64,000 nt of DNA, taken from an uncultured Thermodesulfatator sp. (lineage in GTDB: Bacteria > Desulfobacterota > Dissulfuribacteria > Dissulfuribacterales > QOAL01). Location: NCBI GenBank assembly GCA_964581255.1, contig CAZOMT010000002.1, positions 8,775 through 72,774 on the forward strand. The letters are read 5' to 3'. The translations under genes were made by a program, and so were the position numbers. A model generated the notes under the pieces. The model searched no databases. It was given only the letters and a program-made list of their open reading frames with translations, and was not told the DNA's origin. This document shows, piece by piece, positions 15,630-60,938 of this stretch (its first letter is position 1; each line of letters starts with the position of its first letter).

Positions 15630-15634
15630 CTAAT

Positions 15635-16171: not shown

Positions 16172-16183
16172 GATGTCTCCTTA

Positions 16184-34848: not shown

Positions 34849-36033
34849 TTATTTTCTTAGCTTTTTTTCTTTTTTGGCTCGCAAAACATCTTCGAAAACT
34901 TTCAGATAACCTTGGACCGCCTTGTCCACTGAGAAATATTCGGCCCGTTTTTTAAGTTCTTCACGATTCCATCTGGTGTCAAGGCCTTTCAATATGGCCT
35001 CCGACATAGCCTTGTCATCTCCAACAGGCACAAGAATCCCAAATCTGCCATCCTCGATTATCTCGCCTGCCCCGCCTGGAGAATCTGTGCTCACAACAGG
35101 GCAACCTGCTGCCAGTGCCTCGATCAGCACACCTGGAAGCCCTTCAAATCTGGATGAAAGACAAAAAAGATGGGCCTTGGACATAAACGCCAGGGGGTTG
35201 GGCACGAAACCATGAAGATCCACCTTGTCTTCGACTCCAAGCTTGGAAATAAGCCTTTTTAGAGCCTGCCGTTCCTTTCCCTCTCCGAGGATTATGAGTC
35301 TCATGTCCCTTTGCCTTACGGCATGGCTGAAGGCCCTTATAAGCATTGCAAAATCCTTCTGTGCCGAAAGTCTTCCAGCCGCAAGGATCACAGGAGGCAC
35401 CTGCCGTTTATCCCCACTCAACCAAGGATGGTCCACATGCTCCCTGGCCTTATCCAGAAGCCCTGGTGTGAATGTGGGATTATAAACCACCCTGATCTTT
35501 TCCACAGGGATGCCCGTTGCCCTGGAGGTGTCTTCGGCAATGTTTTTTGATACTGCCACGAAACCATCAGCATGGGGATAAAGCCGGCATGACTTGATAA
35601 ATCTAACCCTCTTCTTGAGACCCTTTCCTGTTTTTAATGAAGAGGTTAGATGATTACTGAGCCTTATCACCAGAGGAATACTGGTGCCAGAAAGGAGTTT
35701 TGCCGAAATGGCCGCTATGTGTGCATGATTGGCTGCAGATAACAATATGTCCATATCTGCATGCCTTTCAGCCTTTCTGAGGCATGCCACAAGGGGCCAA
35801 CGGCTTAGATCCATCTTGCGCTTCTTGGATAACTTTTTAAAAAGAGGTCTCATAAGCCCCTTGCCCAACTCCTCAACCAATACGCCATCTGCCACATCTT
35901 CCAGATAGCCCCCTTTTTCCACAACTATGAATCTTACCTTGTGGCCTTGCTCCTCAAAGGCCTTTGCCAAGGTGAGAACCCTTCTTGTGGCCCCGCCCCA
36001 TGTAAGGCCGAAGATGAAGATTCCAATTTTCAT
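34849..36033 (-). CDS. glycosyltransferase family 4 (GT-B)
   Basis: N-terminal GGATRRV and C-terminal SRFEGLPGVLIEALAAGCPVVSTDSPGGAGEII (E-x7-E motif); 394 aa. Confidence 0.85.
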   Translation of the reverse strand: MKIGIFIFGLTWGGATRRVLTLAKAFEEQGHKVRFIVVEKGGYLEDVADGVLVEELGKGLMRPLFKKLSKKRKMDLSRWPLVACLRKAERHADMDILLSAANHAHIAAISAKLLSGTSIPLVIRLSNHLTSSLKTGKGLKKRVRFIKSCRLYPHADGFVAVSKNIAEDTSRATGIPVEKIRVVYNPTFTPGLLDKAREHVDHPWLSGDKRQVPPVILAAGRLSAQKDFAMLIRAFSHAVRQRDMRLIILGEGKERQALKRLISKLGVEDKVDLHGFVPNPLAFMSKAHLFCLSSRFEGLPGVLIEALAAGCPVVSTDSPGGAGEIIEDGRFGILVPVGDDKAMSEAILKGLDTRWNREELKKRAEYFSVDKAVQGYLKVFEDVLRAKKEKKLRK

Positions 36034-37745
36034 GGAAGCCTTTTCACCTGTTTGGCCTGGCCGTTCTCGAGTCTGTAGGCTATATCGGCCGCCTTCAGCA
36101 TGGTTTCCTGATGGGAAATGGCAAGCACTGTTACAGAATCCCTAAGGCCTCTCAAGGTGTGGCATATTTCCAGCTCTGTTTCCGGATCCAAGGCACTCGT
36201 GGCCTCATCCATGATAAGAAGTGCAGGCCTGTTGACGAGCGCCCTAGCTATGGTGATCCGTTGCCTCTGGCCCCCTGAAATAAGGCCCCCCCTTTCACCA
36301 ACGAGGCTGTGGATGCCCTTTGGCATCCTTGAAACAAACTCCCAGGCACCTGCCTTTTTGAGGGCATCTATTACAGCCTCTTCACTTATGCTTTCATCTC
36401 CAAGGGTAATATTGAAATAGACCGTATCGTGCAGAAGGAGGGTCTCCTGTGGCACATAGCCAACCATTTTCCTCCATTTCCTGAGATCTATTTCCGAAAT
36501 AGGGATATCGTCTACCATTACCTTGCCTGCCTCAGGTTGAATCAGACCTGTTATCATATCCACAACGGTTGTCTTTCCTGCTCCAGATGGCCCTATCAAG
36601 GCCGTAAAGGAACCCTTTGGAACCTCCATGGAGAGCCCATGCAATACAGGCCGTTCATTGTAACTCAGATCTATGTCCACGAGGGAAATGGCCCTTTCAA
36701 ATCGGGGAGGCATACTGCCTGTAAATCTCTCCCTTTTCTCTTCTGCTTCCTCGATCCTCGAAAGGAGAGACCAGTAGGCACTTTCAGCTATGACCATGGA
36801 CTGATGCTGTTTTTGGGCCCGCTGAAGGGCCTTTAGAATCTTTGCAAGCATATAGACCATCACCAGCACATTAGAGAGGGGAAGATCCAGAAGCACCAAC
36901 GCCACGTAGAGGCCTATTGCAAAGAAAATGGTGGTAAGCGGCTCTTGAAGCGCCCTCAACGCCTCCTTGCTGAACACTTGCCTTTGAAGGGCCTTTTTAA
37001 GATCCACTGTCTTTTCGGCAAGTATCCTCTCGGCAGCGTATTCTCTTGCCATTGCCTTAAGTGGCTTTATGGAAAGAAGGATATCAGTGAGAAAGGACAG
37101 AAGGGACTTGAGGAGCAATGTCTGGTCACGTCCTGCCCTTTTGGCACGCCTTACCATGAAGCGCAGGACATAAAGGATTCCAGTACCCATTATGACAGCC
37201 ATGACCGTCGCCTTCCATGCCACCATAAGTGCTACTGTTGTATAAACAGCGGCATTCATAAGCATGGCAATCAGCCTCATGCCAAAAAGATACGCATCTG
37301 CCGACCTGGTGGCCTCGGTGGCAAAAGAGTTGGCTATGCTGCCCGTAGGCTGACGCACATAATAGGTCCAACTGCTGTTAAATATTGCCTTGAGCAGGGC
37401 CAGACGAAGATCTGTTGCCACGTTGGCAACCATATACCCGACCTTCCTGTTGGCCAGAAGCACCAGTAGCACCTTGATCACTATGCTCATAACAAAAATT
37501 ATGAGCAAAAGGCCGATGGTGGGCTCGGCCCCAAAAAAAGCAAACAGGCTGGATATGGCCCTTTCCAGGGATGAGCTCGCCTTGTGTGCCTCTTCGGCCC
37601 CATTCACTCCTCCTGCCGAAAGGCTCAAAAGTGGCAGGAGCATGGACATGCCAAACCCCTCTGCAATCCCCGCGATGAGCATGGCAAAGAGCGTAAGAAG
37701 ACTCTGAGCAGGATATCTTTTGAGAAAGCTTATGATGAATCTCAT
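36030..37745 (-). CDS. ABC transporter, fused permease/ATPase, MsbA-like lipid exporter type
   Basis: Six-TM N-domain, Walker A GPSGAGKTT, signature ISGGQRQR and Walker B LLIMDEATSALD; 571 aa. 4-nt overlap with the GT4 gene. Confidence 0.85.
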   Translation of the reverse strand: MRFIISFLKRYPAQSLLTLFAMLIAGIAEGFGMSMLLPLLSLSAGGVNGAEEAHKASSSLERAISSLFAFFGAEPTIGLLLIIFVMSIVIKVLLVLLANRKVGYMVANVATDLRLALLKAIFNSSWTYYVRQPTGSIANSFATEATRSADAYLFGMRLIAMLMNAAVYTTVALMVAWKATVMAVIMGTGILYVLRFMVRRAKRAGRDQTLLLKSLLSFLTDILLSIKPLKAMAREYAAERILAEKTVDLKKALQRQVFSKEALRALQEPLTTIFFAIGLYVALVLLDLPLSNVLVMVYMLAKILKALQRAQKQHQSMVIAESAYWSLLSRIEEAEEKRERFTGSMPPRFERAISLVDIDLSYNERPVLHGLSMEVPKGSFTALIGPSGAGKTTVVDMITGLIQPEAGKVMVDDIPISEIDLRKWRKMVGYVPQETLLLHDTVYFNITLGDESISEEAVIDALKKAGAWEFVSRMPKGIHSLVGERGGLISGGQRQRITIARALVNRPALLIMDEATSALDPETELEICHTLRGLRDSVTVLAISHQETMLKAADIAYRLENGQAKQVKRLP

Positions 37746-37786: not shown

Positions 37787-38968
37787 TTAAGCCGGATTGT
37801 GAACAGACTCAAAGGCCTTTGCTATCTTTTCAATCTGTTGGATCGAGTGAGCGGCACTTAGGCTGCATCTTAAAAGAGCGGTTCCGTCAGGTGTGGCTGG
37901 CGGCAACACCATATTCACATATACTCCCCTTTCCAGGAGACCGTTCCAGATCCTGAATGCCTCATCTACCTGCTCACACCTTACAGGAATAATAGGGCTT
38001 GCCTCTGGCCCAACCTTGAACCCAAGCTCCTTCAACCTCCCGTATAGGGCAAAGGCGTTTTCCCAGAGCCTTTGCCGCAACTGAGGTTCTGAACGAATTA
38101 TGGCAAGGGCAGCCTTTGCTGCGGCTATGTTTGCAGGAGATGAAGAAGCAGTGAAGACATAGGGCCTGCTGGCGAAACGAATAATTTCCAGTTCTTCATG
38201 ATTGCTTGTGCAAAAGCCACCAACTGAACCAAGGCTTTTACTAAAGGTCCCCACCACAAAGTCCACAGCATCCTCGACCCCGGCTTCCTCTGCCAGCCCT
38301 CTGCCCCTTTCTCCAAGGACTCCCAGGGAATGGGCCTCGTCCACCAAGAGGTAGGCACCATATTCTGCCTTCAGGGCCGCAATCTCTTTAAGGGGTGCCC
38401 TATCACCCAGCATACTATAGAGACCTTCCACCACAATGAGGACATCCCCATCCTGCTGTTTCATTCTCTTCAACCGTTTTTCCAGATCATTCACGTCGTT
38501 GTGGCGAAACCGGAATACTTGAACACCGCCAAGACGGCAGCCGTCATAGATGCTGGCATGGCAATCTGCATCAAGCAGTACCACGTCCCTGGGACCCACT
38601 ATGGTGGAAAGCATGGCCAGGTTGGCGCTGTAACCCGTGGTGAATACGATGGTCCTTGACCTGCCGAAAAATTCCGAAAGGTCTTGTTCCAGTGCTACAT
38701 GGGACGAATATGTCCCATTGGCCATCCTGGAACCTGTAGTGCCTGTTCCTTCATGTTCAATTGCCTTGCAAGCAGCCTCAATACATTCATGCCTGAGGGG
38801 CAGGCCCAGGTAATTGTTGGTCCCAGCCAGGATGACCCTGTTGCCATTTATAACCGCTTCTGTACTGGACAAAAGCTCCTCAATAACAATGTCAAAAAAT
38901 GCGCTGCACTGTTCCTCAATCGTCCTTATGGAAGAAGAGATCTTTTCAAACTTGTCAAAAAGCCCCAT
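37787..38968 (-). CDS. spt: alpha-oxoamine synthase, serine palmitoyltransferase-like
   Basis: NNYLGL, GTGTTGSRMANGT, DADCHASIYDGC, RFRHND and the PLP-lysine block GTFSKSLGSVGGF. This matches my recollection of Sphingomonas SPT better than BioF or Kbl. Confidence 0.7.
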   Translation of the reverse strand: MGLFDKFEKISSSIRTIEEQCSAFFDIVIEELLSSTEAVINGNRVILAGTNNYLGLPLRHECIEAACKAIEHEGTGTTGSRMANGTYSSHVALEQDLSEFFGRSRTIVFTTGYSANLAMLSTIVGPRDVVLLDADCHASIYDGCRLGGVQVFRFRHNDVNDLEKRLKRMKQQDGDVLIVVEGLYSMLGDRAPLKEIAALKAEYGAYLLVDEAHSLGVLGERGRGLAEEAGVEDAVDFVVGTFSKSLGSVGGFCTSNHEELEIIRFASRPYVFTASSSPANIAAAKAALAIIRSEPQLRQRLWENAFALYGRLKELGFKVGPEASPIIPVRCEQVDEAFRIWNGLLERGVYVNMVLPPATPDGTALLRCSLSAAHSIQQIEKIAKAFESVHNPA

Positions 38969-38973
38969 CTATC

Positions 38974-39219
38974 TCAAGCCTCGGTAAGCTTCTGTACCTG
39001 GATAGCGAGATCTTCAACAGTGCGTACCTCTGAAAGGACATTTATGGGGATTGAAAGATCAAAGGCATCTTCCAGATTTGCCAAGATTTCCATGGACTTT
39101 AGGGAATCTATGGCCAGGTCACTTTCTATGTCCATTCCAGGTTTTATCTCCACACTGCCAGAAACATATGGCTGAAGTATCTCCACTATCTTTTCCAGTA
39201 TGACCTTATCTGCCTTCAT
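38974..39219 (-). CDS. acp: acyl carrier protein
   Basis: 81 aa, with the phosphopantetheine site DLAIDSLKSMEI (DSL). Confidence 0.85.
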   Translation of the reverse strand: MKADKVILEKIVEILQPYVSGSVEIKPGMDIESDLAIDSLKSMEILANLEDAFDLSIPINVLSEVRTVEDLAIQVQKLTEA

Positions 39220-39316: not shown

Positions 39317-40270
39317 TCAAATCAATCTGCTTTTAAGGGCATCTGCCAGGACAATCCTTGGCGCCCAGTTCATATCCTGACAGATTCGGCTATTATCGCA
39401 GACCCAGGCGGGATATGCAAGCTCCCTGGCCTTTCCAGGCGTAAGCATTGGGGGTTTCCTGCGGAATCGGGACACAGCAGCATTTATGTAGCCGGCAGCA
39501 AACAGGAGCCCAAAAGGGATGCGAAGCCTCAATATCCTTTTTTTCAAGACCCGCTCGGCCACTTCTGCTACTTCCTGCCAGGAATATCCCAGCGGAACAC
39601 CATCGTGCAACTCGTAGGTTTTGCAAAAGACCTCATTGCTGGAAAACCAGCAAAAAACAGCCTCTGCGAGATCGTGAACATGAAGTAGAGAGAACCTATT
39701 TTGGCCGTTTCCTAGGCAAGGAACCACTCCCTTGCAAATCCATTCAAGGATGGGACGCATCTGTTTATCGCCAGGGCCATAAACTGCCGGAGGCCTGAAA
39801 ATCGTCCAGGAAAGCCCTTCATGAAACCTTTTCAGGGCCTCTTCACCCCTTTTCTTGCTTAGGGCATAATGGGATAATTCCGGATTTTTCGCCGCAAGGG
39901 ACGAGACAAGAAGAAGGCGTGGCGGCCTTTTATGCCGAGAACAGACCTTTGCAAGGTGGGCCACCGCCTCCTTGTTTATCCTTTCAAAATCCTTCAGGTT
40001 CAGACCCCTCACCAGTCCAGCACAGTGGATAGTGGCGTCTGCCTCCTTTGTGAGCCTTTCAAGGCTAGAGACATCGTCAAGCTCTCCCTTGACCCATTCT
40101 AGCCCAGACTGATGCCAGCATTTGTCTGTTGAGCAGTCTCTGACAAGGGCCTTTACCCTGAAGCCAGCAAGGAGAAATCTTCTGGCCACAGCTCCACCTA
40201 TAAATCCGGTGGCACCAGTAATTGCAATAACTCCTTTAAATTTGGACGGACAGGAAACAAAGCAAGCCAT
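39317..40270 (-). CDS. NAD-dependent epimerase/dehydratase-family (extended SDR) reductase; candidate 3-keto-sphingoid/ceramide reductase
   Basis: ITGATGFIGGAV Rossmann motif and YALSK (YxxxK); 317 aa. Its position downstream of ACP/Spt mirrors the Caulobacter cerR position (recollection). Confidence 0.6.
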   Translation of the reverse strand: MACFVSCPSKFKGVIAITGATGFIGGAVARRFLLAGFRVKALVRDCSTDKCWHQSGLEWVKGELDDVSSLERLTKEADATIHCAGLVRGLNLKDFERINKEAVAHLAKVCSRHKRPPRLLLVSSLAAKNPELSHYALSKKRGEEALKRFHEGLSWTIFRPPAVYGPGDKQMRPILEWICKGVVPCLGNGQNRFSLLHVHDLAEAVFCWFSSNEVFCKTYELHDGVPLGYSWQEVAEVAERVLKKRILRLRIPFGLLFAAGYINAAVSRFRRKPPMLTPGKARELAYPAWVCDNSRICQDMNWAPRIVLADALKSRLI

Positions 40271-41214: not shown

Positions 41215-43014
41215 TCATGGACATCCAACAAACCCTCTTTCAATACAGACCTTTCTTGTGGCACTTCTTGAAGGTTTTCCTGATGTCGTTCTAACCAGGG
41301 TATTTCTTGGCACAACTATTACTTGGCAATCTATCCCCAGCTCTTTGAGCACCAGGCTCCTAAGGGTGCCTCGCAAGGCCTTTTTGGCCTCTTCATCACC
41401 ATTTTTACACTGAATGACCAATACGGCCCGCTCTTTGCCTTTTTCATCCGGGAGGGAAAATGCGCAGGTATCCCCGATCCTCACTTCTTCTAAGGATTCA
41501 GCCAAGTATTCGATATCTTGAGGCCAGATATTTCTGCCATTTATGATAATTAAATCCTTGGAACGCCCTGTTATGACAATGTCTTTGCCTGAAAGATAGG
41601 CAGTATCTCCGGTGTTGAGCCATCCCTCGGCATCCAAGACCTCGCTTGTGGCCTCCTTGTCCCCAAGATACCCTGACATAACACTTGGCCCCCTGAGAAA
41701 AAGGATTCCGCACTTACCATCAGGCACCACCCTTCCAGATGAATCTCGAATCTCTACCTCAAATCCCGGCAAGGGGCATCCACATTTTACAAAGGTCTTG
41801 ACCCTACCATTGGCAGAGGCCTTTTGGGTTTTCAAATGCACTATTTCCTTAAAGGTTGCAAGGCGTTCTGCATCAATGCTGTCTACCTCTATCCCCACGC
41901 CCCTCTTGGCAAAGGCGACGGCCAGGGAACATTCGGCCATGCCATAACAGGACAAAAACGCCCCTGGATCAAAACCACACGGCTTGAGGCGTTTCGCAAA
42001 GCGTTCAAGCAATTCCGGCCGAATCATTTCGGCCCCTACCCCTGCAATTCTCCATGAGCTCAAGTCGTAATTCTGTACGTCACTGTCCCTTAGGCGAAGG
42101 GCTGCCAACTCATATCCGAATGGCGGACTAAACGAAATGGTGGCGCCATTATCCGACATGAGTTTCAGCCATAACCCTGGACGCATGGCAAAATCACTGG
42201 TACTGAAAAAATCCACAGATAGCTGGGAAGCCATAGTAGACAGCACCAGCCCCACTAGCCCCATGTCGTGGTAGAAGGGCAACCAGGAAACAGCCCTGTC
42301 CCCGTTTCTGCAGCTGATGCCATATTCGGTGATGGCATTGAGGTTGCTGAGAACCGCCTTCTGGGTGATCATGACCCCTTTGGGGAACCTGGTGCTTCCA
42401 GAAGTGAACTGGAGATAGGCAAGTTCCCCCTGGCCAAGGGGATCAAGCTGCACGCTGGATTCAGGCAAGGCATAAAAGTCATCAGGCCTTCCAAGGAAAT
42501 CGAGCCGATGCCCTTGTGCCGCCTTTTCAAGATATGGATAAAACTCGTCTGTTGCCACGGCCAGCCTGGCATCACAAATGGCTAAAAGCCTTGACAACTG
42601 ACGAACATAGGCCTCGGCACCGTTCAAGTGCATTACAATGGGAAGTGGCACAGGGATGAGGCCAGCATACTGGCACGCAAAAAAGAACCTTACGAATTCC
42701 GGATGGGTATTTGCTACTATTGCGACCTTCGAACCCCTAGGAATCCTAAAGTATAGCAGCTTTCGTGCAAGTATGCGGGCGTCATGCCTGAGCCTTGAAT
42801 AGGGAATAGAGGCATACAAGTGGCCCCGTCTGGAATAAAAATTATAACCTGTCCGGCCCCTTGCCGCATAATCAAGGGCTTGGGCGAGCGTTGAGAACTC
42901 GCCACGCCTCATGGGTATATTGTTTATACTCGGGGTCGCAACAAGCCTAGAAGTGTCTTCCAGTTTTATTTCACTGCCACAGGAATAGGAGACAACTGCC
43001 TGAGATGATTTCAT
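41215..43014 (-). CDS. fatty acyl-AMP ligase / acyl-ACP synthetase (adenylate-forming)
   Basis: YLQFTSGSTRFPKGVMITQ, GDTAY and GRSKDLIIINGRNIWPQDIE (FAAL-typical); 599 aa. Confidence 0.82.
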   Translation of the reverse strand: MKSSQAVVSYSCGSEIKLEDTSRLVATPSINNIPMRRGEFSTLAQALDYAARGRTGYNFYSRRGHLYASIPYSRLRHDARILARKLLYFRIPRGSKVAIVANTHPEFVRFFFACQYAGLIPVPLPIVMHLNGAEAYVRQLSRLLAICDARLAVATDEFYPYLEKAAQGHRLDFLGRPDDFYALPESSVQLDPLGQGELAYLQFTSGSTRFPKGVMITQKAVLSNLNAITEYGISCRNGDRAVSWLPFYHDMGLVGLVLSTMASQLSVDFFSTSDFAMRPGLWLKLMSDNGATISFSPPFGYELAALRLRDSDVQNYDLSSWRIAGVGAEMIRPELLERFAKRLKPCGFDPGAFLSCYGMAECSLAVAFAKRGVGIEVDSIDAERLATFKEIVHLKTQKASANGRVKTFVKCGCPLPGFEVEIRDSSGRVVPDGKCGILFLRGPSVMSGYLGDKEATSEVLDAEGWLNTGDTAYLSGKDIVITGRSKDLIIINGRNIWPQDIEYLAESLEEVRIGDTCAFSLPDEKGKERAVLVIQCKNGDEEAKKALRGTLRSLVLKELGIDCQVIVVPRNTLVRTTSGKPSRSATRKVCIERGFVGCP

Positions 43015-44795: not shown

Positions 44796-45617
44796 TCAAG
44801 CATCCCGTCCATCAGCCGTTCTGGTCGCTATAGTTTCCACAAGCCTCCAGTCCTCCTCGGTATCCACGTCGATGGCTGCTTCGGGAAAAGGCATCAAGAC
44901 AGCCCCAACACTACAACCAAAAACCTTTGATGCACGATCCAACGCCTTGCGAAGGCTCAATGTGCCTGTGAGATACCTTAGGAGCCAATACCAACCAAAA
45001 CCTCCTACCACCTGAAGGGGCTTCTTACGCCTTTCTTCCACCATTTGCCAAAACTCAGCTGCCCTGAAAGCCCTTTTGTTCATGAATCCAAACAGATTGC
45101 AAGAACAAAATACACCGTCTCTGAACCTGTATGAGGTCCTTTTGGCATTGGGATAAGACCTCTTCAACAAATCCATGCTTGCAAGCCCTACCGACAGGTC
45201 GTAACCTGCTTCATCAGCCTTTTCACAGAAAAACCTTACAATTTCCGGCCTGAGAAGCGCATGATCCGCTGTAGTTAGCAGAATCGGGGCCTGGCCGCCT
45301 GCAAGCCTCAAGGCCTTAAGTGCGCTTTGGCTGGGGGAAGGCTCGTTGCGAACCCACTGAATGGAATCTGACCTTATTGCTGTGGCTCCTTCTTCCATCG
45401 TTTGAAAAATGTACTTTTCCGGACCACATAACAAGATACGTTCTATGCACCCGGACCCCCAAAGCCCCTCCACCACCCTTTGAACCATAGGCTTGCCACC
45501 AACAGGGATCAGGGCCTTTATTGGGACATCAAACCTTGCCAGAAGAGGATTCTCCCCCCTTCTTTCGCCAGCAAGGACAATGGCATCGAACATGGTGAAA
45601 CCGCTCTCAATCTTCAT
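44796..45617 (-). CDS. MobA-like NTP-transferase family protein
   Basis: FDAIVLAGERRGENPL...KALIPVGGKPMVQRV (degenerate GxGxR nucleotidyltransferase motif); 273 aa. ATGA overlap with the upstream GNAT-like gene. Confidence 0.6.
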   Translation of the reverse strand: MKIESGFTMFDAIVLAGERRGENPLLARFDVPIKALIPVGGKPMVQRVVEGLWGSGCIERILLCGPEKYIFQTMEEGATAIRSDSIQWVRNEPSPSQSALKALRLAGGQAPILLTTADHALLRPEIVRFFCEKADEAGYDLSVGLASMDLLKRSYPNAKRTSYRFRDGVFCSCNLFGFMNKRAFRAAEFWQMVEERRKKPLQVVGGFGWYWLLRYLTGTLSLRKALDRASKVFGCSVGAVLMPFPEAAIDVDTEEDWRLVETIATRTADGRDA

Positions 45618-47116: not shown

Positions 47117-47917
47117 ATGAACGCGATAATTCTCAGTGCAGGCCAGGGCAAAAGGCTTCTGCCTCTGACATCAAAATCCCCCAAATGCCTGCTCGATATC
47201 TGTGGGAAAACCATATTGGAATGGCAAGTTGAGACACTTGCCGGTGAAAAAGTCGATGAAATCATCGTGGTAACTGGCTATGGATCGGAAAAGGTTGAAC
47301 AACTGGTCCAGAGACGGCTCAAACAATACGGAGTAAGGACCTTCTACAATCCGGATTTTGCCACTTCTGACAACCTTATAAGCTGCTGGAAGGTACGCCA
47401 TGAGATGAAGGGCGAATTCATACTCTTGAATGGGGATACCCTTTTTGAACCGGCAGTCTTGGAAACACTCCTAAGTTCACCTGAAGCATCCATAACTGTT
47501 ACGGTCAGCTCGAAGGACAAATATGACTCAGACGATATGAAGGTCGTAACAGAGGCGGGAAGGCTCCTGAAAATAGGCAAAGAACTGCCCCTGGATCGCG
47601 TCTCTGCAGAATCCATCGGACTCATATATTTCAGGGGGCAGGGACCTGAAATCTTCTCAACAGCCCTTGATGAGGCTGTCCATGATCCAGGCTCCAGAAA
47701 GAAATGGTATCTTTCAGTGATTGATGCCATAGCCGCAAACAATCCTGTAATGACATGTTCGGTCACCGGCCTGAAGTGGTGCGAAATTGATTATCCCAAG
47801 GACCTGAAGTTGGCAGAGCCTGTAGTGTCTGCGATCAAACTCGATGGCAGAAGTCAGGACAGCCACCAGATGTACATGGGGCAAGGCCTCGTACACGCAA
47901 AGGGCAGGGCCTGCTGA
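47117..47917 (+). CDS. sugar/alcohol-phosphate nucleotidyl(cytidylyl)transferase, LicC/IPCT-like
   Basis: MNAIILSAGQGKRLLPLTSKSPKCLL (GxGxRL motif), LLNGDTLF and WCEIDYPKDL. GGGAG lies 8 nt upstream of ATG 47117; the track start 47066 is less likely. Confidence 0.75.
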   Translation: MNAIILSAGQGKRLLPLTSKSPKCLLDICGKTILEWQVETLAGEKVDEIIVVTGYGSEKVEQLVQRRLKQYGVRTFYNPDFATSDNLISCWKVRHEMKGEFILLNGDTLFEPAVLETLLSSPEASITVTVSSKDKYDSDDMKVVTEAGRLLKIGKELPLDRVSAESIGLIYFRGQGPEIFSTALDEAVHDPGSRKKWYLSVIDAIAANNPVMTCSVTGLKWCEIDYPKDLKLAEPVVSAIKLDGRSQDSHQMYMGQGLVHAKGRAC

Positions 47918-48037: not shown

Positions 48038-49138
48038 ATGATAGCAGAACGGTACATCATGCGGGAAATCTTAAAACCTGCTGCTGTAATCTGCAGTATC
48101 CTGATATTTATTTACGGCAGTTTCATCGCGGCGAGATATTGGGCTGCGGCTGCCCAGGGACAACTGCCTGGCTCTACCGTGATGATCCTGGTCTTTTTCA
48201 GGATTGCCGTGGCCATGGAGCTATTACTTCCGACTACCCTTTTCCTATCGGTTGTCCTGGCACTTAGCCGTCTTTACAGAGATGGCGAGATGACCGCAAT
48301 GTTCGCCTGTGGCATAAGTCCCATTAGAATCACCTTGGCCGTTTTAGCCATATCCCTGATCATAGCCATGCTGGTAGCCTGTTTTTCCCTGGTCATAAGG
48401 CCTTGGGCATGGGATGAATTCTTCACCATGAAGGCACAGGCAAAGGCCAGCTTCGACCTTACCAGGATGAAGGCCGGGGTCTTCTATGAAATCTGGCATG
48501 GCCGTAGAGTAATCTTTGCAGAAAAGGTCAATAACAAAAAAAATCAGGCAGAAAATATCTTCATACAGACCAAGCACGATGACAACCTTCAGATTATATA
48601 CGCAAGACATGCCAGACAATTCTATGACAAGGGACGAAGGACGCCCATACTCATACTCTCAGACGGAAAGGACTATGAATTTGCAAAAAAAAGTGACAAA
48701 GAGGTCATACTGCAGTTTGAACAGTCTGAGCTCTCACTGGAGCCAAGACAAATTGTCAAAGAAGAAAGGGTAAAGGCTGCCCCGACCCAAAAGCTTCTCC
48801 ACTCCTCTAGCCTTGAAGAGATAGCAGAACTTCAATGGAGGCTTATTACTCCGATATCTACTGTGCTTCTGGCACTTCTTGCAGTGCCTCTCAGCAGATC
48901 CTCTCCCAGGCAAGGAAAATACGCCAAGCTTCCCCTTGCCATATTGCTGTTCGCCGCATATTACAACCTGAGCGCAATAGCAAAAAAGTGGGTTGCCCAG
49001 GGTGTGTTAGCCGCATTTCCAGGGCTTTGGTGGAGCCAGATACTGCTTGGGATCCTCATCTTGTTTCTTTTCTGGCAACCTCAACTTCACACCATGCTAC
49101 GAAGAAAAAGGCTTCATGCCAAGATGCCGTCAGGATAG
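48038..49138 (+). CDS. lptF: LptF/LptG-family permease (LptF-like)
   Basis: MIAERYIMREILKPAAVI start typical of the YjgP/YjgQ family. Three TM segments, a periplasmic beta-jellyroll region, then three more TM segments; 366 aa. Confidence 0.8.
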   Translation: MIAERYIMREILKPAAVICSILIFIYGSFIAARYWAAAAQGQLPGSTVMILVFFRIAVAMELLLPTTLFLSVVLALSRLYRDGEMTAMFACGISPIRITLAVLAISLIIAMLVACFSLVIRPWAWDEFFTMKAQAKASFDLTRMKAGVFYEIWHGRRVIFAEKVNNKKNQAENIFIQTKHDDNLQIIYARHARQFYDKGRRTPILILSDGKDYEFAKKSDKEVILQFEQSELSLEPRQIVKEERVKAAPTQKLLHSSSLEEIAELQWRLITPISTVLLALLAVPLSRSSPRQGKYAKLPLAILLFAAYYNLSAIAKKWVAQGVLAAFPGLWWSQILLGILILFLFWQPQLHTMLRRKRLHAKMPSG

Positions 49139-49154: not shown

Positions 49155-50222
49155 ATGAAGATTCTAGACCTTTATATCGGAAAGAATTTTCTCAAATTTT
49201 TTCTCGTGGTCATCATCATTCCTGGCGTTTTGTTCAGCCTCTTTCAGCTGTTGTCAGAGCTTGATTCTGTGGGCAAGGGCACCTACACCATGTGGGATGC
49301 CATGATCTTTATAGCACTCACCTCACCCAAGAGGTTCATGGATCTTGTTCCAATAACAGCCCTCCTCGCCGGCATAGTAGCCTTGGGGCGTATGGCAGAC
49401 CGTTCTGAACTGATTGCCATGGAGGCATCTGGCCTTTCTGTCGCCAGGATAACCATTTCTGTCCTTGGGGCATGCAGCCTCATCATGGCCGCAGCCGTTC
49501 TATCCAACGAACTCATCGTTCCTCCAATGGAACAAAACGCTCGATTGATGCGCGCGCGAGCGCTTTCTACCAAAGGCGTCACCTTTACCCAAAAAGGATT
49601 TTGGGCCAGAAGAGGGCAGGCCTTCATTCACGTGAACAAGCTCATTGGTAAGGATGCAGCAGAAGATATAGACATATTCTCTTTTGACGCTAAAGGTGAT
49701 CTCGAAAGCTTCATACATGCCCAAAATGGGGCTATTACAGGGAAAGGCCACTGGATCCTTTATGACGTTACCGAAAAGATCGTCAAGGGATTGGACATAG
49801 AGACAAGAACAGTTGAAAGACTTACTTTGAAATCATTTCTTAGCCAAGACCAGGTTAGCGCATTGGAGCTTCCGCCAGAGAGCCTGTCGGCGCAAGACCT
49901 CATAGACTATATCCATGCCCTTGAAAAAAGTGGACAGAATGCTGACCACTACAGGCTTGCCCTTTGGAGGAAATTGAGCCAGCCACTTACAACTGGCGCC
50001 ATGACTATACTTGCCCTTGGATTTGTATTCGGCTCTACCAGGAAGTTGAGTGCAGGCCTACGGATAACCGCAGGATCTTTCGCAGGAATCGCCCTCTATT
50101 TTTTCGACCAGATAACCATGCATGTCGGCCTACTAATGGGCATGAGGCCTGTAGTGGTTGCCTTCATCCCCTTTGCTGTGATATCAACCATTGCCTTCTT
50201 GAGACTCAAGCCTTCCTTATAG
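49155..50222 (+). CDS. lptG: LptF/LptG-family permease (LptG-like)
   Basis: MKILDLYIGKNFLKFFLVV start, same topology as the preceding gene; 355 aa. Confidence 0.8.
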   Translation: MKILDLYIGKNFLKFFLVVIIIPGVLFSLFQLLSELDSVGKGTYTMWDAMIFIALTSPKRFMDLVPITALLAGIVALGRMADRSELIAMEASGLSVARITISVLGACSLIMAAAVLSNELIVPPMEQNARLMRARALSTKGVTFTQKGFWARRGQAFIHVNKLIGKDAAEDIDIFSFDAKGDLESFIHAQNGAITGKGHWILYDVTEKIVKGLDIETRTVERLTLKSFLSQDQVSALELPPESLSAQDLIDYIHALEKSGQNADHYRLALWRKLSQPLTTGAMTILALGFVFGSTRKLSAGLRITAGSFAGIALYFFDQITMHVGLLMGMRPVVVAFIPFAVISTIAFLRLKPSL

Positions 50223-50386
50223 TCATCATTGGCGATTCCTGGGCCGCAGTTAAAAATCGGGAATTTTTATCATAGAACAAGAGGTATGAGAAAATTGGCC
50301 ACGGGCATGTTGCCGATATTACGATGACTATTTTGAGGAAGGCGGTATTTGACAAAAAGACAATCCTTAGAGGAGGCCTATTAAAC

Positions 50387-51385
50387 TTAAAGCCTGAGAT
50401 AAAAGTGCCGTATTTTTCCTTTTGCAAAGCCCTGTTCGTACGACTTGAAAACCCGTTCCTCCATCTTGCACATCCAATAGTTCTCTTTCTGCCTGCTGAT
50501 TTCAAAGATGAAATATTTGGCCCTTCGTTCCTTCCTCGGACTCACAGAAAGCGCTGATGGTGCCTCGACCACTGGTATCTGGCCTGCCGGCCCTTTTATG
50601 AAATATAGGGAAGTAAGGTGCGAGTGGCCGTGGAGCACAAGCCCACAGCCATGCTTTTCAATAAGCTGCAACAGCTCTCCAGCGTCAACCAGTTCCTTTC
50701 TCTTATCCACTACAGCTGGTGCTGGTGGATGGTGGATGGCAAGGACCTGGAACAACCCTCTTTGCCTCGTTCGTTGCAAAATGGATTCTAGCCTCTCAAG
50801 CTGCCCTCTGCCCACCTTGCCAGTGGCGAGGTGCCAAGGACTTGGAGCTGCCGTGGCCAGCCCTATTAGTGCCACAGCCTTTCTTACACGCACCACAGGG
50901 AAAATTGCTTGAAGAGCGGAAGGGGATTTGTCCTTACAGAATGAATATGGAGCATAGGCCTGCCACTGGAAAAAGGTTTTGGCCCAAGGCATCCTTACGT
51001 AAGTATCGTGATTGCCAGGAAGAACTAACAGATCGTCTGGCTTGCCAACCCTGCTTAGCCACATGGCAACCTTTTTGAACTCCTGTGGAAGTCCCAGATG
51101 GGTAAGATCCCCTGTGATTATTGTCTGATCAGCCCTAATCTGTTGCAGTTCTTGCTCAAGTATGGCAAGAATCCTGTAATCGAACTCTTTTGAGCGTCCC
51201 AGTTTCCATCTGAGATACCCCAATATCCTCTTATTCAGGAGCTGGCGCCATGAGAGGCTGCCTGTGCAGGCAATATGCAGGTCTGAAAGATGTGCAATTG
51301 TCAAAGGCCCCTTGTCCGAAGGAAAGGGCTCATCCCAGGCATCTCGTTCAGTCGTGATTTTTTTTGCTGTGAAGATATCGACCAT
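50387..51385 (-). CDS. metallophosphoesterase (calcineurin-like)
   Basis: IAHLSDLHI, TGDLTH, GNHD and LHGHSH metal-binding motifs; 332 aa. Confidence 0.82.
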   Translation of the reverse strand: MVDIFTAKKITTERDAWDEPFPSDKGPLTIAHLSDLHIACTGSLSWRQLLNKRILGYLRWKLGRSKEFDYRILAILEQELQQIRADQTIITGDLTHLGLPQEFKKVAMWLSRVGKPDDLLVLPGNHDTYVRMPWAKTFFQWQAYAPYSFCKDKSPSALQAIFPVVRVRKAVALIGLATAAPSPWHLATGKVGRGQLERLESILQRTRQRGLFQVLAIHHPPAPAVVDKRKELVDAGELLQLIEKHGCGLVLHGHSHLTSLYFIKGPAGQIPVVEAPSALSVSPRKERRAKYFIFEISRQKENYWMCKMEERVFKSYEQGFAKGKIRHFYLRL

Positions 51386-51417
51386 TTCTGTTATCTATAC
51401 TGGAAACTGACTGTCAA

Positions 51418-52629
51418 ATGCAATTTTCCATGAACCTCTATCTCTACTTCATAAACGATTGTCCTGTAAAAATATGGGGTCTTACTCCAAGGTGCCGTGC
51501 CCAAAAGGTACTTATGGGCCAGGCAGTAGCCGTTGAGGATCTTTCCAAACTCAAACCTACGGATCACGTCCTCATACTCAGGGGAGACTATATATTTGAA
51601 GACAGACTGCTCAAACACCTTGCTGCTACCCCAAACATCCTTCTTCTCGTAGAAGAAGGCCGCAAGCAGATTCCTGTTGCCGTCCACGTCCCTGGATCAC
51701 TTGCAAAGCAGGGGATCAGGATCTTGCAGCAGGGCAGGATACCAAAAGGGCTTGAGGGAATATCCGTTCATACCATAGAGAGTGTTTCTGTGGCCTTTCA
51801 TGAAAAGCTCAGGAAATTTGAGCCACCCTTTGCAATCCACGTAACCGAAAAAGATGTCAACGATATTGAAAAACGCCTCTTCAACTGGTCGTACAAAGGT
51901 GTGACCGACCTCGTTACCAAATGGCTCTGGCCACTACCGGCAAGATGGGTGGTAAGGCAGTGTGTACGTCTTAATCTTAAACCTAATCATATCACCTTCA
52001 TTGGTTTTTTACTTGTTCTACTGGCTGGATACCTCTTTGCAAAGGGCAGGTTGGGCTGGGGATTGTTGGCAGGATGGCTCATGACCTTTCTCGATACGGT
52101 TGATGGAAAACTTGCCAGGGTCACAGTGACTTCTAGTAAATTTGGCCACTATTTCGACCACATAATCGATATCATCCATCCCCCCATCTGGTATCTGTTA
52201 TGGGGGATTGGCACTGTTCAAACAGGACAATACCATTTGCACATTTCACCATCCACCCTCTATATGACGATTTTCGCAGGATACATTGCAGGACGGTTGG
52301 CAGAAGGTTCGTTTCAGTGGTTCATAGCAAGGTTTGGCATATTTTGCTGGAGACCAATGGATTCGTTCTTCAGGCTGATAACGGCAAGACGAAACCCTTG
52401 CATGATCCTTCTGACTGTATCCTACCTCATTGGACGACCAGACTGGGGGCTAGTCTCGGTAGCCTTTTGGACAGTGGCCACTACTCTTTTCCTTTTGGCC
52501 CGGCTGACATATGCATTTTATCAAAAGCATTCAAAGGGTGAAGTAAAATCGTGGCTCCAGGAAATAGATTTTACCTCGGGAAAGAAGAATCTGGCCATAC
52601 GCTGGTTTACCAGGCACGATTCCACCTAA
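51418..52629 (+). CDS. CDP-alcohol phosphatidyltransferase with about 150-aa soluble N-terminal extension
   Basis: DTVDGKLARVTVTSSKFGHYFDHIID matches D-x2-DG-x2-AR-x8-G-x3-D-x3-D. Multiple TM segments follow; 403 aa. Confidence 0.85.
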   Translation: MQFSMNLYLYFINDCPVKIWGLTPRCRAQKVLMGQAVAVEDLSKLKPTDHVLILRGDYIFEDRLLKHLAATPNILLLVEEGRKQIPVAVHVPGSLAKQGIRILQQGRIPKGLEGISVHTIESVSVAFHEKLRKFEPPFAIHVTEKDVNDIEKRLFNWSYKGVTDLVTKWLWPLPARWVVRQCVRLNLKPNHITFIGFLLVLLAGYLFAKGRLGWGLLAGWLMTFLDTVDGKLARVTVTSSKFGHYFDHIIDIIHPPIWYLLWGIGTVQTGQYHLHISPSTLYMTIFAGYIAGRLAEGSFQWFIARFGIFCWRPMDSFFRLITARRNPCMILLTVSYLIGRPDWGLVSVAFWTVATTLFLLARLTYAFYQKHSKGEVKSWLQEIDFTSGKKNLAIRWFTRHDST

Positions 52630-52636
52630 ACCCGCG

Positions 52637-53626
52637 ATGACAAGGCAGCACACTTGTTTAACAGCCCAAGCGAAGGCTGGAATGCTAATAAACCCCCTGG
52701 GCGGATCCAACAAAAAGATAAGTGGAATACTATTCAAAACGGCTAAAGAATCAGTAGGCACCGTAAAAAAAGTGGTTACCCCTATGGATGTTGAGGCAGC
52801 CCTCAAAGACTTTAGGGAAAAAGGTGTCAACCTACTGATAGTGAGCGGTGGAGATGGTACTGTGCAGGCGGTTCTCACAACCCTTTTCGGGAAAGGCCCT
52901 TTTGACACTCTACCTGCGCTTGCGATCTTGCCTGGAGGAACCACGAATCTCATAGCAAAAGACGTAGGAATTTGCATTTCTCAAAAACGGGCTATCAAGG
53001 AATTGATGAATCTTTTACGGGAAAACAGGTTGCTGTCCTGCGCCACTTTAGCCAAGAGGCATGTATTGCATCTCAACTGCCAAGACAGAGTCGACGAATA
53101 TGGCATGTTTCTCGGGGCTGCTGGCATATCCCAGGCAGTAGCAGCCTTTCAGAAACAGAAGATGCATCACCTCACGTGCAGAAAGGCCAACATATTGCTC
53201 GCCGCCATCAAACTCATGGTGGCATCCATTGTTGGACGTGGCACAAAGGATCACTCAGAAAGGCTCAAAATTCGGCTTAATGGCAAAACCATCTTGGACA
53301 AGAGGTTTCTGCTGGTCCTGGTCACGACCCTCGAAAGGCTATTTTTCGGTATAAGGCCCTTTTGGGCCCAAATGGACGGCCCTATTCATCTGACTGCTGT
53401 TGCAAGAAGGCCGAAATATTTTCCAAAAGTCCTATTGGGGCTAATCTTCAAAAGATTCAGCAAGCACCTGACGAAAGAAAATGGATATCTTTCATTCAAT
53501 GCCCACATAATTGAACTCTATGCCCCAAAAGGGGTCGCCCTGGACGGACAGATAATTAAAAACCCTGACCCTGATATACCCATAGTTGTAAAAGATGGTG
53601 GGGAAGTATCATTTATCAAGCTATGA
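52637..53626 (+). CDS. DAGK-catalytic-domain lipid kinase (YegS/BmrU/sphingosine-ceramide kinase superfamily)
   Basis: MLINPLGGSNKK and LLIVSGGDGTVQAVL plus ILPGGTTN motifs; 329 aa. It starts 7 nt after the preceding gene. Confidence 0.8.
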   Translation: MTRQHTCLTAQAKAGMLINPLGGSNKKISGILFKTAKESVGTVKKVVTPMDVEAALKDFREKGVNLLIVSGGDGTVQAVLTTLFGKGPFDTLPALAILPGGTTNLIAKDVGICISQKRAIKELMNLLRENRLLSCATLAKRHVLHLNCQDRVDEYGMFLGAAGISQAVAAFQKQKMHHLTCRKANILLAAIKLMVASIVGRGTKDHSERLKIRLNGKTILDKRFLLVLVTTLERLFFGIRPFWAQMDGPIHLTAVARRPKYFPKVLLGLIFKRFSKHLTKENGYLSFNAHIIELYAPKGVALDGQIIKNPDPDIPIVVKDGGEVSFIKL

Positions 53627-54588
53627 CTTGCGCCATTCCCTATCCCCTCTTGAGAGAAATACAAAAATATTCGCAAACCCACATAGTATCACCTGGCCTC
53701 CACGCCTTAATGGATGAGATTACAAGACGCCATGGCCCAGGGGTAAAGGCCATTTTATATTATGGTTCCTGCCTCCAATCTGGCAAGGAATTCGACGGTA
53801 TCGTGGATCTTTTTGTCCTAGTGAACGATTATGGCTCGGTTTACAAACGGCCTTGGCTCAGTTTCCTGAACTGGCTCCTGCCTCCAAATGTATTCTATCT
53901 GGAGCTTCCAATAGAAAAAGGCAAACGCATCAGGGCAAAATACGCCATAATATCTCTCGCGGACTTTTTGGAGAAGACTTCTGGAAAGACATTCCACTCG
54001 TACTTCTGGGCACGTTTCAGCCAGCCTGTCGCATTGATTTTTTTCTCACATCCAAGGATAAAAAGGGCGGTTGAAAATGGGCTTGCCTGTGCCTTAATGA
54101 CCTTTCTAAAAAACGTGGTGCCATGCGCGGCTCCTCGCTTTGATGCCAAGAAGCTGTGGCTTACGGGCCTAAATTTAAGCTACAGCGCAGAACTCAGGCC
54201 AGAACGGGCCTTTCGCCTCGAAAGGCTATGGGCAGAACAAGGGGAGATATTGGAAGCCGTAACCGAGGTTGCCATAAAGGCTCTTCCTTACGAAATAACC
54301 GTTGAAACTGAAGGAGAAGACATCTTATATCTGGCAAACATACCAAGGCGCGCCTGTGCTCTTTGTTGCACTGCATGGAGGTTTAGGCGCATATACGGAA
54401 AACTTCTTTCAGTGCTTCGTCTTTTCAAGGCCAGTTTCACATTCAGGGCCGGGGTGGATTACGCAATCTGGAAGATAAAAAGACATTCTGGAGTGCAGAT
54501 AGAGGTCAGCCCCTTTCTTAGAAGGCATCCGGCCCTTGCAATGGTGGTACTATCCTGGAGGCTTTTTAAGAGCCGGGCTGTGCGGTGA
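53623..54588 (+). CDS. hypothetical protein; candidate Tam41/Mmp37-like nucleotidyl(cytidylyl)transferase
   Basis: ATGA overlap with the lipid kinase gene. YYGSCLQSG, IVDLFVLV, NVFYLELP...RAKYAIISLADFLE and FHSYFWARFSQPVALIF line up by eye with yeast Tam41 blocks YGSGV..Q, IDLI.GV, GVYFNPF...VKYGVVS...LL.D and FYLAGRLQKPVKIL (recollection). Confidence 0.4.
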   Translation: MTCAIPYPLLREIQKYSQTHIVSPGLHALMDEITRRHGPGVKAILYYGSCLQSGKEFDGIVDLFVLVNDYGSVYKRPWLSFLNWLLPPNVFYLELPIEKGKRIRAKYAIISLADFLEKTSGKTFHSYFWARFSQPVALIFFSHPRIKRAVENGLACALMTFLKNVVPCAAPRFDAKKLWLTGLNLSYSAELRPERAFRLERLWAEQGEILEAVTEVAIKALPYEITVETEGEDILYLANIPRRACALCCTAWRFRRIYGKLLSVLRLFKASFTFRAGVDYAIWKIKRHSGVQIEVSPFLRRHPALAMVVLSWRLFKSRAVR

Positions 54589-54625
54589 TCTTGTTGTTCC
54601 AGATCAAAGAGATGTTCACCAACAC

Positions 54626-55015
54626 TCACACAAGGCCCAGATATTGGCCTATCTTCTTGTCTTCCTGAAGGATATGCTCCCTTAACCAATAATTCAGAAA
54701 TCCCACCAGTTCGGAGGCTGTCCACTGTTTGCCGTTTTTGAGATCAATGAGTATTGCTGCCACATCGTTTACCAAGTCTTTGTGCAGGATCTTGTGCCGT
54801 GAAAGTTCAGGATACCCCACATTCGACATCATTTTTTCCTCATTTTTGAAGTGTAATTTTACATATTCCACAAGCTCTTTGAGCACCGCGCCTGTAGTTT
54901 TGCTAACAGAGCCACCATACATTGAATTCTCAAGTTTTTGGATAAGAGAAACCAAGGCCTTGTGCTCAAGATCCATCTGGCTGATCCCAATCTCAAAACT
55001 CTTTTTCCATTTCAT
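54626..55015 (-). CDS. bacteriohemerythrin
   Basis: MKWKKSFEIGISQMDLEHKAL, LHFKNEE, HKILHKDL and WLREHILQEDKK iron-ligand motifs. The ATG at 55015 has GGAGA 7 nt upstream; the track ORF extends to 55117. Confidence 0.85.
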   Translation of the reverse strand: MKWKKSFEIGISQMDLEHKALVSLIQKLENSMYGGSVSKTTGAVLKELVEYVKLHFKNEEKMMSNVGYPELSRHKILHKDLVNDVAAILIDLKNGKQWTASELVGFLNYWLREHILQEDKKIGQYLGLV

Positions 55016-60252: not shown

Positions 60253-60284
60253 CAATTCTCTGTTTATAAGGAGGAACACGTTTC

Positions 60285-60599
60285 ATGACTGTCAGAAATA
60301 TCTCTGGAACTTTGATGGCCGGACTCCTTTTGCTTACGCCATGCCTAGCGTTGGCAGCCGAAGGCGCCAAAAGCAGTTGTGGAGGTTCGGCCAAGTGGGG
60401 GTTTCTCGGGGCTGCGCTTGCAGTTGCTGGCTCCACCATTGGAGCTGGCATAGCAGTTGGCCTGGTTGGAGCTGCTGCAATGGGAGCCATAAGCGAGCGC
60501 CCAGAGGTGGCAGGCCGCGCCCTGATCTTTTTGGGCCTGGCAGAAGGCATTGCCATATATGGCCTAATTATAGCCATCATGATACTTGGGAAGATTTAA
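60285..60599 (+). CDS. V/A-type ATPase proteolipid subunit K (c)
   Basis: GAGIAVGLVGAAAMGAISERPE hairpin helix 1 and LIFLGLAEGIAIYGLIIAIMIL helix 2 with the carboxylate E; 104 aa. Confidence 0.88.
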   Translation: MTVRNISGTLMAGLLLLTPCLALAAEGAKSSCGGSAKWGFLGAALAVAGSTIGAGIAVGLVGAAAMGAISERPEVAGRALIFLGLAEGIAIYGLIIAIMILGKI

Positions 60600-60635
60600 G
60601 ATGGGCAAACAGGTCAAGACCATTTATGGAAAGAA

Positions 60636-60935: not shown

Positions 60936-60938
60936 CAT

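Follow-up and report, generated by a model that had tools for sequence, protein, structure and literature searches.

Which lipid is made by the genes at positions 50387 to 54588 of a 64,000-nucleotide stretch of DNA from an uncultured Thermodesulfatator sp. (contig CAZOMT010000002.1), and might its synthesis pass through ceramide activated with cytidine diphosphate (CDP)? This block consists of a calcineurin-like metallophosphoesterase gene and, divergently transcribed from it, three genes for a CDP-alcohol phosphotransferase, a lipid kinase of the DAGK_cat type and a 321-amino-acid (aa) protein resembling Tam41. We refer to the whole 64-kb stretch as the window, and all coordinates (Table 1) and all statements of absence concern these 64 kb. 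The evidence presented below indicates that the block is very probably the head-group module, cpgA-cpgB-cpgC and a phosphoesterase resembling CC_1158, within a full locus for an anionic phosphosphingolipid of the type described in Caulobacter crescentus. It is not a new pathway but a Caulobacter-type system in a new, distant bacterial lineage, and nothing in the window is categorically new.

A previous reading made from the letters of this DNA (the sequence-only reading) had proposed that the operon products may act on a sphingolipid. Its operon genes are retained here, but the upstream sphingolipid genes and the membership of lptFG in the locus were missed. The region from 32.4 to 54.6 kb of the window (22 kb) is a complete bacterial sphingolipid synthesis and export locus. 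The lipid made here is almost certainly a sphingolipid because a serine palmitoyltransferase (Spt) that scores above its curated cut-off, an acyl carrier protein (ACP), an acyl-ACP synthetase, a CerR-like reductase and a bCerS-like acyltransferase are encoded 5 to 16 kb upstream of the block, and these same genes support the sphingolipid proposed earlier. The bCerS and CerR identities are assigned from domain and position. The bCerS-like gene shares a start/stop overlap with the adjacent gene for a nucleoside triphosphate (NTP) transferase resembling CC_1153.

The C. crescentus locus CC_1152 to CC_1168 (CCNA_01210 to CCNA_01226) carries cpgA, cpgB, cpgC, cpgD, bcerS, spt, acpR, cerR, aasR and lptF2G2C2, and makes and exports ceramide diphosphoglycerate (CPG2). 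Within it, CC_1161 (CpgC) has an InterPro Tam41 domain, CC_1159 (CpgA) has a cytoplasmic N-terminal domain ahead of its PF01066 domain, CC_1158 is a calcineurin-like phosphoesterase that contributes to CPG2 formation, CC_1156 and CC_1155 are LptF2 and LptG2, CC_1154 is bCerS, CC_1153 is a MobA/CofC-like NTP-transferase needed for CPG2, and CC_1152 (CpgD) matches PF00483, PF01128 and PF12804 (Olea-Ozuna et al. 2024, PMC11324152). CC_1160 (CpgB) belongs with the diacylglycerol (DAG)/sphingosine-kinase-like enzymes and has been shown biochemically to be a ceramide kinase (PMC11324152, PMC12275187). The window locus holds the same protein families in nearly the same order. In addition to the ceramide-synthesis genes, it has adjacent cpgA-, cpgB- and cpgC-type genes (PF01066, DAGK-type and Tam41-domain, respectively), an LptF2/LptG2 pair, a CC_1158-type phosphoesterase and both NTP-transferases, with domain sets identical to those of CC_1152, CC_1153, CC_1158, CC_1155 and CC_1156. 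The kinase and Tam41-like genes are adjacent and translationally coupled in both organisms. The host of the window locus belongs to a different phylum (Desulfobacterota-like).

To evaluate how widely this arrangement is kept, 80 related loci were tabulated, of which 50 had enough flanking DNA for counts of gene content and 73 had enough upstream sequence for kinase adjacency to be scored. In 66 of those 73 loci the kinase gene immediately precedes the one for the Tam41-like protein, an arrangement far beyond chance, and the kinase itself is present in 48 of the 50. The conserved gene order is that of the window: the 388-aa GNAT protein, the MobA-like NTP-transferase, a LicC/IMPCT-like NTP-transferase, LptF, LptG, the metallophosphoesterase, the PF01066 transferase, the kinase and the Tam41-like protein. 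The cluster is common in Desulfobacterota and Nitrospirota, and further carriers belong to Gammaproteobacteria, Calditrichota, Myxococcota and Binatia. Cultured bacteria with the full cluster include Desulfoprunum benzoelyticum DSM 28570 (locus L013 of our tabulation) and Desulfopila aestuarii DSM 18488 (L055). Many related loci, some of them from Nitrospirota, have genes for Spt, ACP, CerR or AasR within 10 kb of the cluster. Identity of the window to its nearest genome relatives is only about 60%. One group of Nitrospirales carries the cluster with no metallophosphoesterase.

All four open reading frames (ORFs) of the block were confirmed, and their junctions were read directly from the sequence. 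The TAA stop of the transferase gene occupies 52627 to 52629 and the kinase ATG lies at 52637, leaving a gap of 7 nt, while the kinase and Tam41-like genes overlap by ATGA at 53623 to 53626; the tight, co-oriented packing described in the sequence-only reading is thereby reproduced. However, the 7-nt value depends on the kinase start that is chosen, because an alternative start exists at 52682, which is the one used in the public gene call. The divergent gap, given earlier as 33 nt, is 32 nt when measured from the 5' end of the metallophosphoesterase gene (51385, minus strand) to the ATG at 51418 that opens the transferase ORF. A promoter and terminator scan of positions 50200 to 54800 yielded counts no different from those expected for shuffled sequence.

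Tam41 converts phosphatidic acid (PA) and CTP to CDP-DAG, and the sequence-only reading had noted a resemblance of the 321-aa protein to this enzyme. Searches with the single sequence give no Pfam match even at E <= 10, and none among NCBIfam models or PDB sequences. The relation was instead exposed by family profiles and structure prediction. The protein belongs to a family of 1204 clusters (E <= 1e-3) annotated as 'hypothetical proteins', with relatives in the genomes of at least 589 species. PF09139 (Tam41_Mmp37) is matched by 23 of 30 homologues, and nine close homologues (44-49% identical), tested singly, score 24.5 to 40.7 bits against a gathering score of 24, with matches that span only profile positions ~70 to 212. 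The family profile aligns with Schizosaccharomyces pombe Tam41 (6ig2) at E 6e-4 through the KY, GRFxQPV and LSY..R blocks; the N-terminal GS...D block was aligned with Tam41 by eye only.

An AlphaFold2 model of the protein (pLDDT 89.9, pTM 0.87) was compared with the PDB by Foldseek, and the best five matches are all Tam41 structures (6ig4, 6ig2 and the Firmicutes 7ecd among them; E 1.7e-9 to 3.4e-8, TMt 0.57-0.59), whereas the next structural class, the aminoglycoside nucleotidyltransferases, reaches a TMt of 0.35 at most. The predicted structure places the protein in the Tam41 fold, in line with the resemblance claimed in the sequence-only reading, which had named a lack of structural similarity as the outcome that would speak against it. 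Mitochondrial and Firmicutes Tam41 and the window protein share a nucleotidyltransferase plus winged-helix fold, a basic helical C-terminal region and the blocks YGS...D(L/F), KY(A/G), (W/L)xGRFxQPV and LSY..E/D.R. They are nevertheless only 16-22% identical, and the Pfam model misses the window protein altogether. Residues Y47, G48, S49, D62, K106, R131, F132, Q134 and P135 are invariant across phyla. Homologues detected by tblastn at 32-37% identity occur in the sphingolipid producers Roseomonas and Qipengyuania and also on a Pseudomonas plasmid, and the Qipengyuania homologue is encoded immediately behind a gene of the DAG kinase family. Unlike Tam41, which acts on PA, the window protein is predicted to use ceramide-1-phosphate, as the gene context and the Caulobacter mutant phenotype suggest.

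The kinase carries the SGGDGT motif and matches PF00781, as had been read from the letters. It corresponds to the Caulobacter ceramide kinase CpgB and is itself a predicted ceramide kinase.

For the transferase, PF01066 (CDP-OH_P_transf) is matched at E 3.7e-10 (40.8 bits versus a threshold of 22) beginning only at residue 189, which leaves an N-terminal domain of ~150-185 aa. The segment DTVDGKLARVTVTSSKFGHYFDHIIDII is an exact fit to the signature D-x2-DG-x2-AR-x8-G-x3-D-x3-D, whose residues are invariant in an alignment of 10 orthologues. Thus, both the perfect motif and the extra N-terminal domain of about 150 aa noted earlier are recovered. The likely start is the ATG at 51430 (M5 of the ORF), since orthologues begin at the equivalent of M5. 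The public gene call starts at 51514 (371 aa) and is probably about 28 codons too short, because it leaves out the conserved residues W20, R27 and L32 as well as this shared start.

No NCBIfam equivalog cut-off for housekeeping PgsA, PssA or phosphatidylinositol phosphate (PIP) synthase is reached by the transferase; its best scores are 51.7 versus 180 bits for archaetidylinositol-phosphate synthase, 43.2 versus 170 for PIP synthase and 20.7 versus 107 for PssA. With scores so far short of every such cut-off, the protein is not a housekeeping PgsA or PssA, a grouping that would have counted against the sequence-only reading. None of the three outcomes that this reading had named as refuting was observed. 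Its architecture, a cytoplasmic N-terminal domain followed by a membrane domain with the signature given above, is that of AF2299 and the IPCT/DIPPS-type enzymes, although it scores well under every cut-off of those family models. As in those systems, the donor is probably a soluble CDP-alcohol supplied by a separate LicC/IMPCT-like cytidylyltransferase. Unlike them, the window transferase is predicted to use a lipid acceptor (ceramide phosphoglycerate in Caulobacter) rather than inositol phosphate.

The candidate donor enzyme is the NTP-transferase encoded at 47117 to 47917, which matches PF00483, PF01128 and PF12804, the same three families as CC_1152. Of the 50 loci, 37 have both the PF01066 gene and a LicC/IMPCT-like NTP-transferase gene, 10 have neither and 3 have only one of the two (Fisher p 7e-8, uncorrected for phylogeny). 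This co-occurrence fits the relation of CpgD to CpgA in Caulobacter, where CpgD forms CDP-glycerate from CTP and phosphoglycerate as the proposed CpgA donor (Dhakephalkar et al. 2025, PMC12275187). Of the two wirings entertained in the sequence-only reading, the one offered as an alternative, in which this NTP-transferase makes the CDP-alcohol donor with IPCT/DIPPS-like logic, is therefore better supported. Its favored linear scheme, running from kinase to Tam41-like protein to CDP-alcohol transferase to phosphatase, finds no support, given that the transferase co-occurs with the NTP-transferase and that Caulobacter CpgA is dispensable for the first head group.

Caulobacter mutants of cpgB make no ceramide phosphate, ceramide phosphoglycerate (CPG) or CPG2, mutants of cpgC keep ceramide phosphate but lose both CPG and CPG2, and mutants of cpgA lose only CPG2 (Zik et al. 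2022, PMC9393093). Addition of the first head group, which yields CPG, does not require CpgA, and CpgA and CpgD are needed only for the second (PMC9393093, PMC11324152, PMC12275187). CpgC is described as acting 'through a yet unidentified mechanism' (Dhakephalkar et al. 2025, PMC12275187), and a 2026 preprint says the same.

On these grounds, the following route can be proposed for the window locus. Spt, AcpR, AasR, bCerS and CerR would produce ceramide, and the kinase would convert it to ceramide-1-phosphate, as shown for Caulobacter CpgB. The Tam41-fold protein would turn ceramide-1-phosphate into the first phospho-head-group lipid, most likely by CTP-dependent activation to CDP-ceramide, in the way that Tam41 activates PA. 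The cytidylyltransferase at 47117 to 47917 would form a CDP-alcohol from CTP and a phospho-alcohol, by analogy with the CDP-glycerate made by CpgD, and the PF01066 transferase would use this donor to add a further phospho-head-group unit, as the Caulobacter genetics and the co-occurrence pattern suggest. The metallophosphoesterase and the MobA/CofC-like NTP-transferase may aid this second step. Finally, the ABC-type flippase, LptF2G2 and LptC2/LptB2 would deliver the lipid to the outer membrane.

About one fifth of the related loci (numbers L003, L007, L010, L018, L020 and L032 of our tabulation, among others) have neither the PF01066 gene nor the LicC/IMPCT-like NTP-transferase gene and retain those for the kinase, the Tam41-like protein, the MobA-like NTP-transferase and the GNAT protein. 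In organisms with such loci, the pathway would be expected to end after one head-group unit.

A broader proposal is that Tam41-fold enzymes of the CpgC type act as ceramide-1-phosphate cytidylyltransferases and thereby form CDP-ceramide, within an anionic phosphosphingolipid pathway that has its own Lpt-type exporter (here with its own LptB) and is widespread in Desulfobacterota, Nitrospirota and other Gram-negative phyla, far outside the alpha-, beta- and gammaproteobacteria in which it has been studied. We advance this only tentatively, judging the odds to lean somewhat against it. The sequence-only reading knew of no described CDP-ceramide route in bacteria. CDP-ceramide is a hypothetical intermediate, and one in which ceramide is activated by a nucleoside diphosphate was already proposed by Olea-Ozuna et al. 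in 2024 (PMC11324152). If the proposal is true, CDP-ceramide would be a sphingolipid liponucleotide new to any organism.

Several observations weigh against the assignment of the block to a Caulobacter-type locus. The 321-aa protein of the window itself fails PF09139, and we infer orthology to the Caulobacter proteins from shared domains, synteny and intermediates from Sphingomonadales, Roseomonas and Pseudomonas (32-37% identity). The lptFG genes may be a second copy or the only pair in the genome. A GT4 glycosyltransferase and a 389-aa protein in the window have no Caulobacter counterpart, and the CpgD-like enzyme could activate another phospho-alcohol, in which case the head group would differ from that of Caulobacter. 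With regard to CDP-ceramide, the 10 loci that have no PF01066 gene encode no transferase to consume it, and Caulobacter CPG forms without CpgA, so no CDP-ceramide-consuming enzyme is evident from the genetics. Perhaps the Tam41-like enzyme catalyzes several steps, or a housekeeping enzyme takes part.

The same four activities might instead serve glycerolipid salvage, with the kinase phosphorylating DAG to PA, the Tam41-like protein forming CDP-DAG, the PF01066 transferase making a phosphatidyl-alcohol phosphate similar to PIP or phosphatidylglycerol phosphate, and the phosphoesterase dephosphorylating it. This possibility draws on the fact that CDP-DAG formation is the only demonstrated Tam41 chemistry, and on in vitro phosphorylation of DAG by Caulobacter CpgB (PMC11324152). 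Among NCBIfam models and PDB structures, the transferase also comes closest to PIP and archaetidylinositol-phosphate synthases, but the models of this group lie far out of reach (51.7 versus 180 bits), and it is the soluble CDP-alcohol synthase, not the Tam41-like gene, whose presence the transferase follows. Moreover, the genes are part of a sphingolipid locus and keep company with Spt, CerR and AasR in several phyla, and the Caulobacter mutants lose ceramide phosphoglycerates, not glycerophospholipids. We consider salvage very unlikely.

We first considered a role in lipopolysaccharide (LPS) or lipid A synthesis, given the lptFG neighbors and a metallophosphoesterase that might be LpxH/LpxG-like. 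Under such a scheme, the block would be a modification module tied to housekeeping lptFG that decorates lipid A or the core with a phospho-substituent. LptF and LptG do score above curated LPS-exporter cut-offs and are kept in the cluster, and kdsA, kdsC, lptC, lptA and lptB are also present in the window. However, the cluster-encoded LptF2G2 of Caulobacter are paralogues, and cells tolerate the loss of LptF2, LptG2 and LptC2 only if anionic sphingolipids are no longer made (Uchendu et al. 2026). The ceramide-synthesis genes accompany the cluster in many related loci, and the second LptC/LptB pair lies at the edge of the window locus, apart from the canonical lptCAB-rpoN set. The idea was dropped on the strength of the Spt, ACP, CerR and AasR genes and the Caulobacter LptF2G2 work, and it now appears about as improbable as salvage.

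Least probable of all is a divided IPCT/DIPPS-like system with no lipid involved, in which a CDP-alcohol would be turned into a soluble phosphodiester (di-myo-inositol phosphate, for example) that serves as a solute: the NTP-transferase and the transferase match the N- and C-terminal halves of the bifunctional IPCT/DIPPS model NF041135 (E 2.4e-18 and 3.2e-10), and IMPCT (4jd0) and IPCT/DIPPS (4mnd) are among the PDB matches, but the NF041135 scores are 66 and 40 bits versus a cut-off of 580, the locus has no inositol-phosphate synthase, the carriers are mostly mesophilic Desulfobacterota and Nitrospirota, and the Caulobacter homologue uses phosphoglycerate for a product that feeds a ceramide lipid (PMC12275187). 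Like salvage, this pathway was rejected on gene context and sub-threshold scores.

The sphingolipid locus of the window does differ from that of Caulobacter in some of its parts. It has a second LptB gene beside lptC2, whereas Caulobacter has no such gene and its LPS and sphingolipid exporters share one LptB, to which LptF2G2 bind (Uchendu et al. 2026). With the canonical kdsA-kdsC-lptC-lptA-lptB-rpoN set, the window contains two LptC and two LptB genes in all, and a second LptB is also encoded in the related Desulfobacterota loci L013, L014 and L024. In place of the Wzx-like CC_1166, an MsbA/HepA-like ABC exporter is the candidate flippase, and no homologues of the HIT protein CC_1157 or of CC_1167 were seen in the window. 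Genes that are extra relative to Caulobacter encode the GT4 glycosyltransferase, the 389-aa protein, a DUF2959 protein and a protein with a signal peptide (43585-44529); all but the DUF2959 protein recur in related Desulfobacterota loci and might modify or handle the lipid.

Table 1. Predicted genes of the block at 50387 to 54588, of the surrounding sphingolipid locus and of other parts of the window.
Feature	Position	Strand	Evidence and recurrence
CpgA-like CDP-alcohol phosphotransferase, AF2299-like cytoplasmic N-domain	51430..52629 (ORF opens 51418)	+	PF01066; AF2299 and PIP synthase best PDB matches
CpgB-like DAGK_cat lipid kinase, predicted ceramide kinase	52637..53626 (start maybe 52682)	+	PF00781 E 3.1e-16; YegS/BmrU-type PDB matches
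CpgC-like Tam41-fold nucleotidyltransferase, candidate ceramide-1-phosphate cytidylyltransferase, 321 aa	53623..54588	+	AlphaFold2 model, Foldseek, family profile
Calcineurin-like metallophosphoesterase, CC_1158 counterpart	50387..51385	-	PF00149 Metallophos E 3.7e-13; Rv0805/Icc-type PDB matches; 35/50 loci
LptG-family permease, probably LptG2	49155..50222	+	PF03739; 43/50 loci
LptF-family permease, probably LptF2	48038..49138	+	TIGR04407 329 bits; 41/50 loci
CpgD-like cytidylyltransferase, predicted maker of the CDP-alcohol donor	47117..47917	+	PF12804, PF00483, PF01128; PDB LicC 1jyk, IMPCT 4jd0
bCerS-like GNAT-type N-acyltransferase, candidate bacterial ceramide synthase, 388 aa	45614..46780	-	Weak PF00583 match; 43/50 loci; CC_1154 position
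MobA/CofC-like NTP-transferase, CC_1153 counterpart	44796..45617	-	PF12804 E 3.9e-13; 45/50 loci
Protein with signal peptide	43585-44529	+	No family match; recurs in related Desulfobacterota loci
Fatty acyl-AMP ligase/acyl-ACP synthetase (AasR-like)	41215..43014	-	NF006624 730.7 bits; adjoins cluster in at least 29 related loci
DUF2959 protein	40519-41175	-	
NAD-dependent epimerase/dehydratase-family reductase (CerR-like)	39317..40270	-	Pfam Epimerase/NAD_binding; recurs in 11 loci
Dedicated acyl carrier protein (AcpR-like)	38974..39219	-	PF00550; NCBIfam ACP models
Serine palmitoyltransferase (Spt)	37787..38968	-	NF047599 equivalog 613.6 bits vs cut-off 500
MsbA/HepA-like ABC exporter, candidate sphingolipid flippase	36030..37745	-	NCBIfam matches; recurs in 12 related loci
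GT4 glycosyltransferase	34849-36033	-	Recurs in related Desulfobacterota loci
389-aa protein	33672-34841	-	No family match; recurs in related Desulfobacterota loci
Second LptB	32915-33682	+	TIGR04406 342.8 bits, above cut-off; locus edge
Second LptC	32386-32964	+	TIGR04409 79.5 bits, above cut-off; locus edge
YhdP-family protein, 1226 aa	23268-26948	-	
kdsA-kdsC-lptC-lptA-lptB-rpoN set	14895-16756	-	
V-type (A/V) ATPase operon (d/C, I, c, F, E, A, B)	57165-64000	+	

Hundreds of species, among them Desulfobacterota, Nitrospirota, Gammaproteobacteria and members of other phyla, have the toolkit of kinase, Tam41-like protein, CDP-alcohol transferase and dedicated Lpt exporter, and therefore the outer membranes of environmental bacteria may commonly contain anionic sphingolipids. 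In Caulobacter, these lipids can partly replace LPS and are the target of polymyxin. The window member of this group is set apart by its own LptB, its ABC-type flippase and its extra genes.

A nearly complete sphingolipid/cpg locus is also present at 1600 to 22000 of the IncP plasmid pPNP1 of Pseudomonas sp. JS425 (NZ_CP073662.1; L086), where an ABC exporter, a Spt-like protein, an ACP, a reductase, an acyl-AMP ligase, an NTP-transferase, LptF, LptG, the kinase, the Tam41-like protein, the metallophosphoesterase, the PF01066 transferase and the LicC-like enzyme are all encoded. This suggests that the cpg locus can move horizontally. The accession numbers of the pPNP1 proteins do not appear in the supplement of PMC11324152, where a match would have tied them to the published P. 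luteola orthologues. The plasmid copy is interrupted by IS5 and adjoins a class 1 integron with sul1.

Elsewhere in the window, the YhdP-family protein adds to an unusually dense set of genes for envelope-lipid transport; work in E. coli implicates YhdP in moving phospholipids to the outer membrane. Downstream of the block, hemerythrin and DUF1614 genes precede a V-type ATPase operon that is unrelated to the sphingolipid locus.

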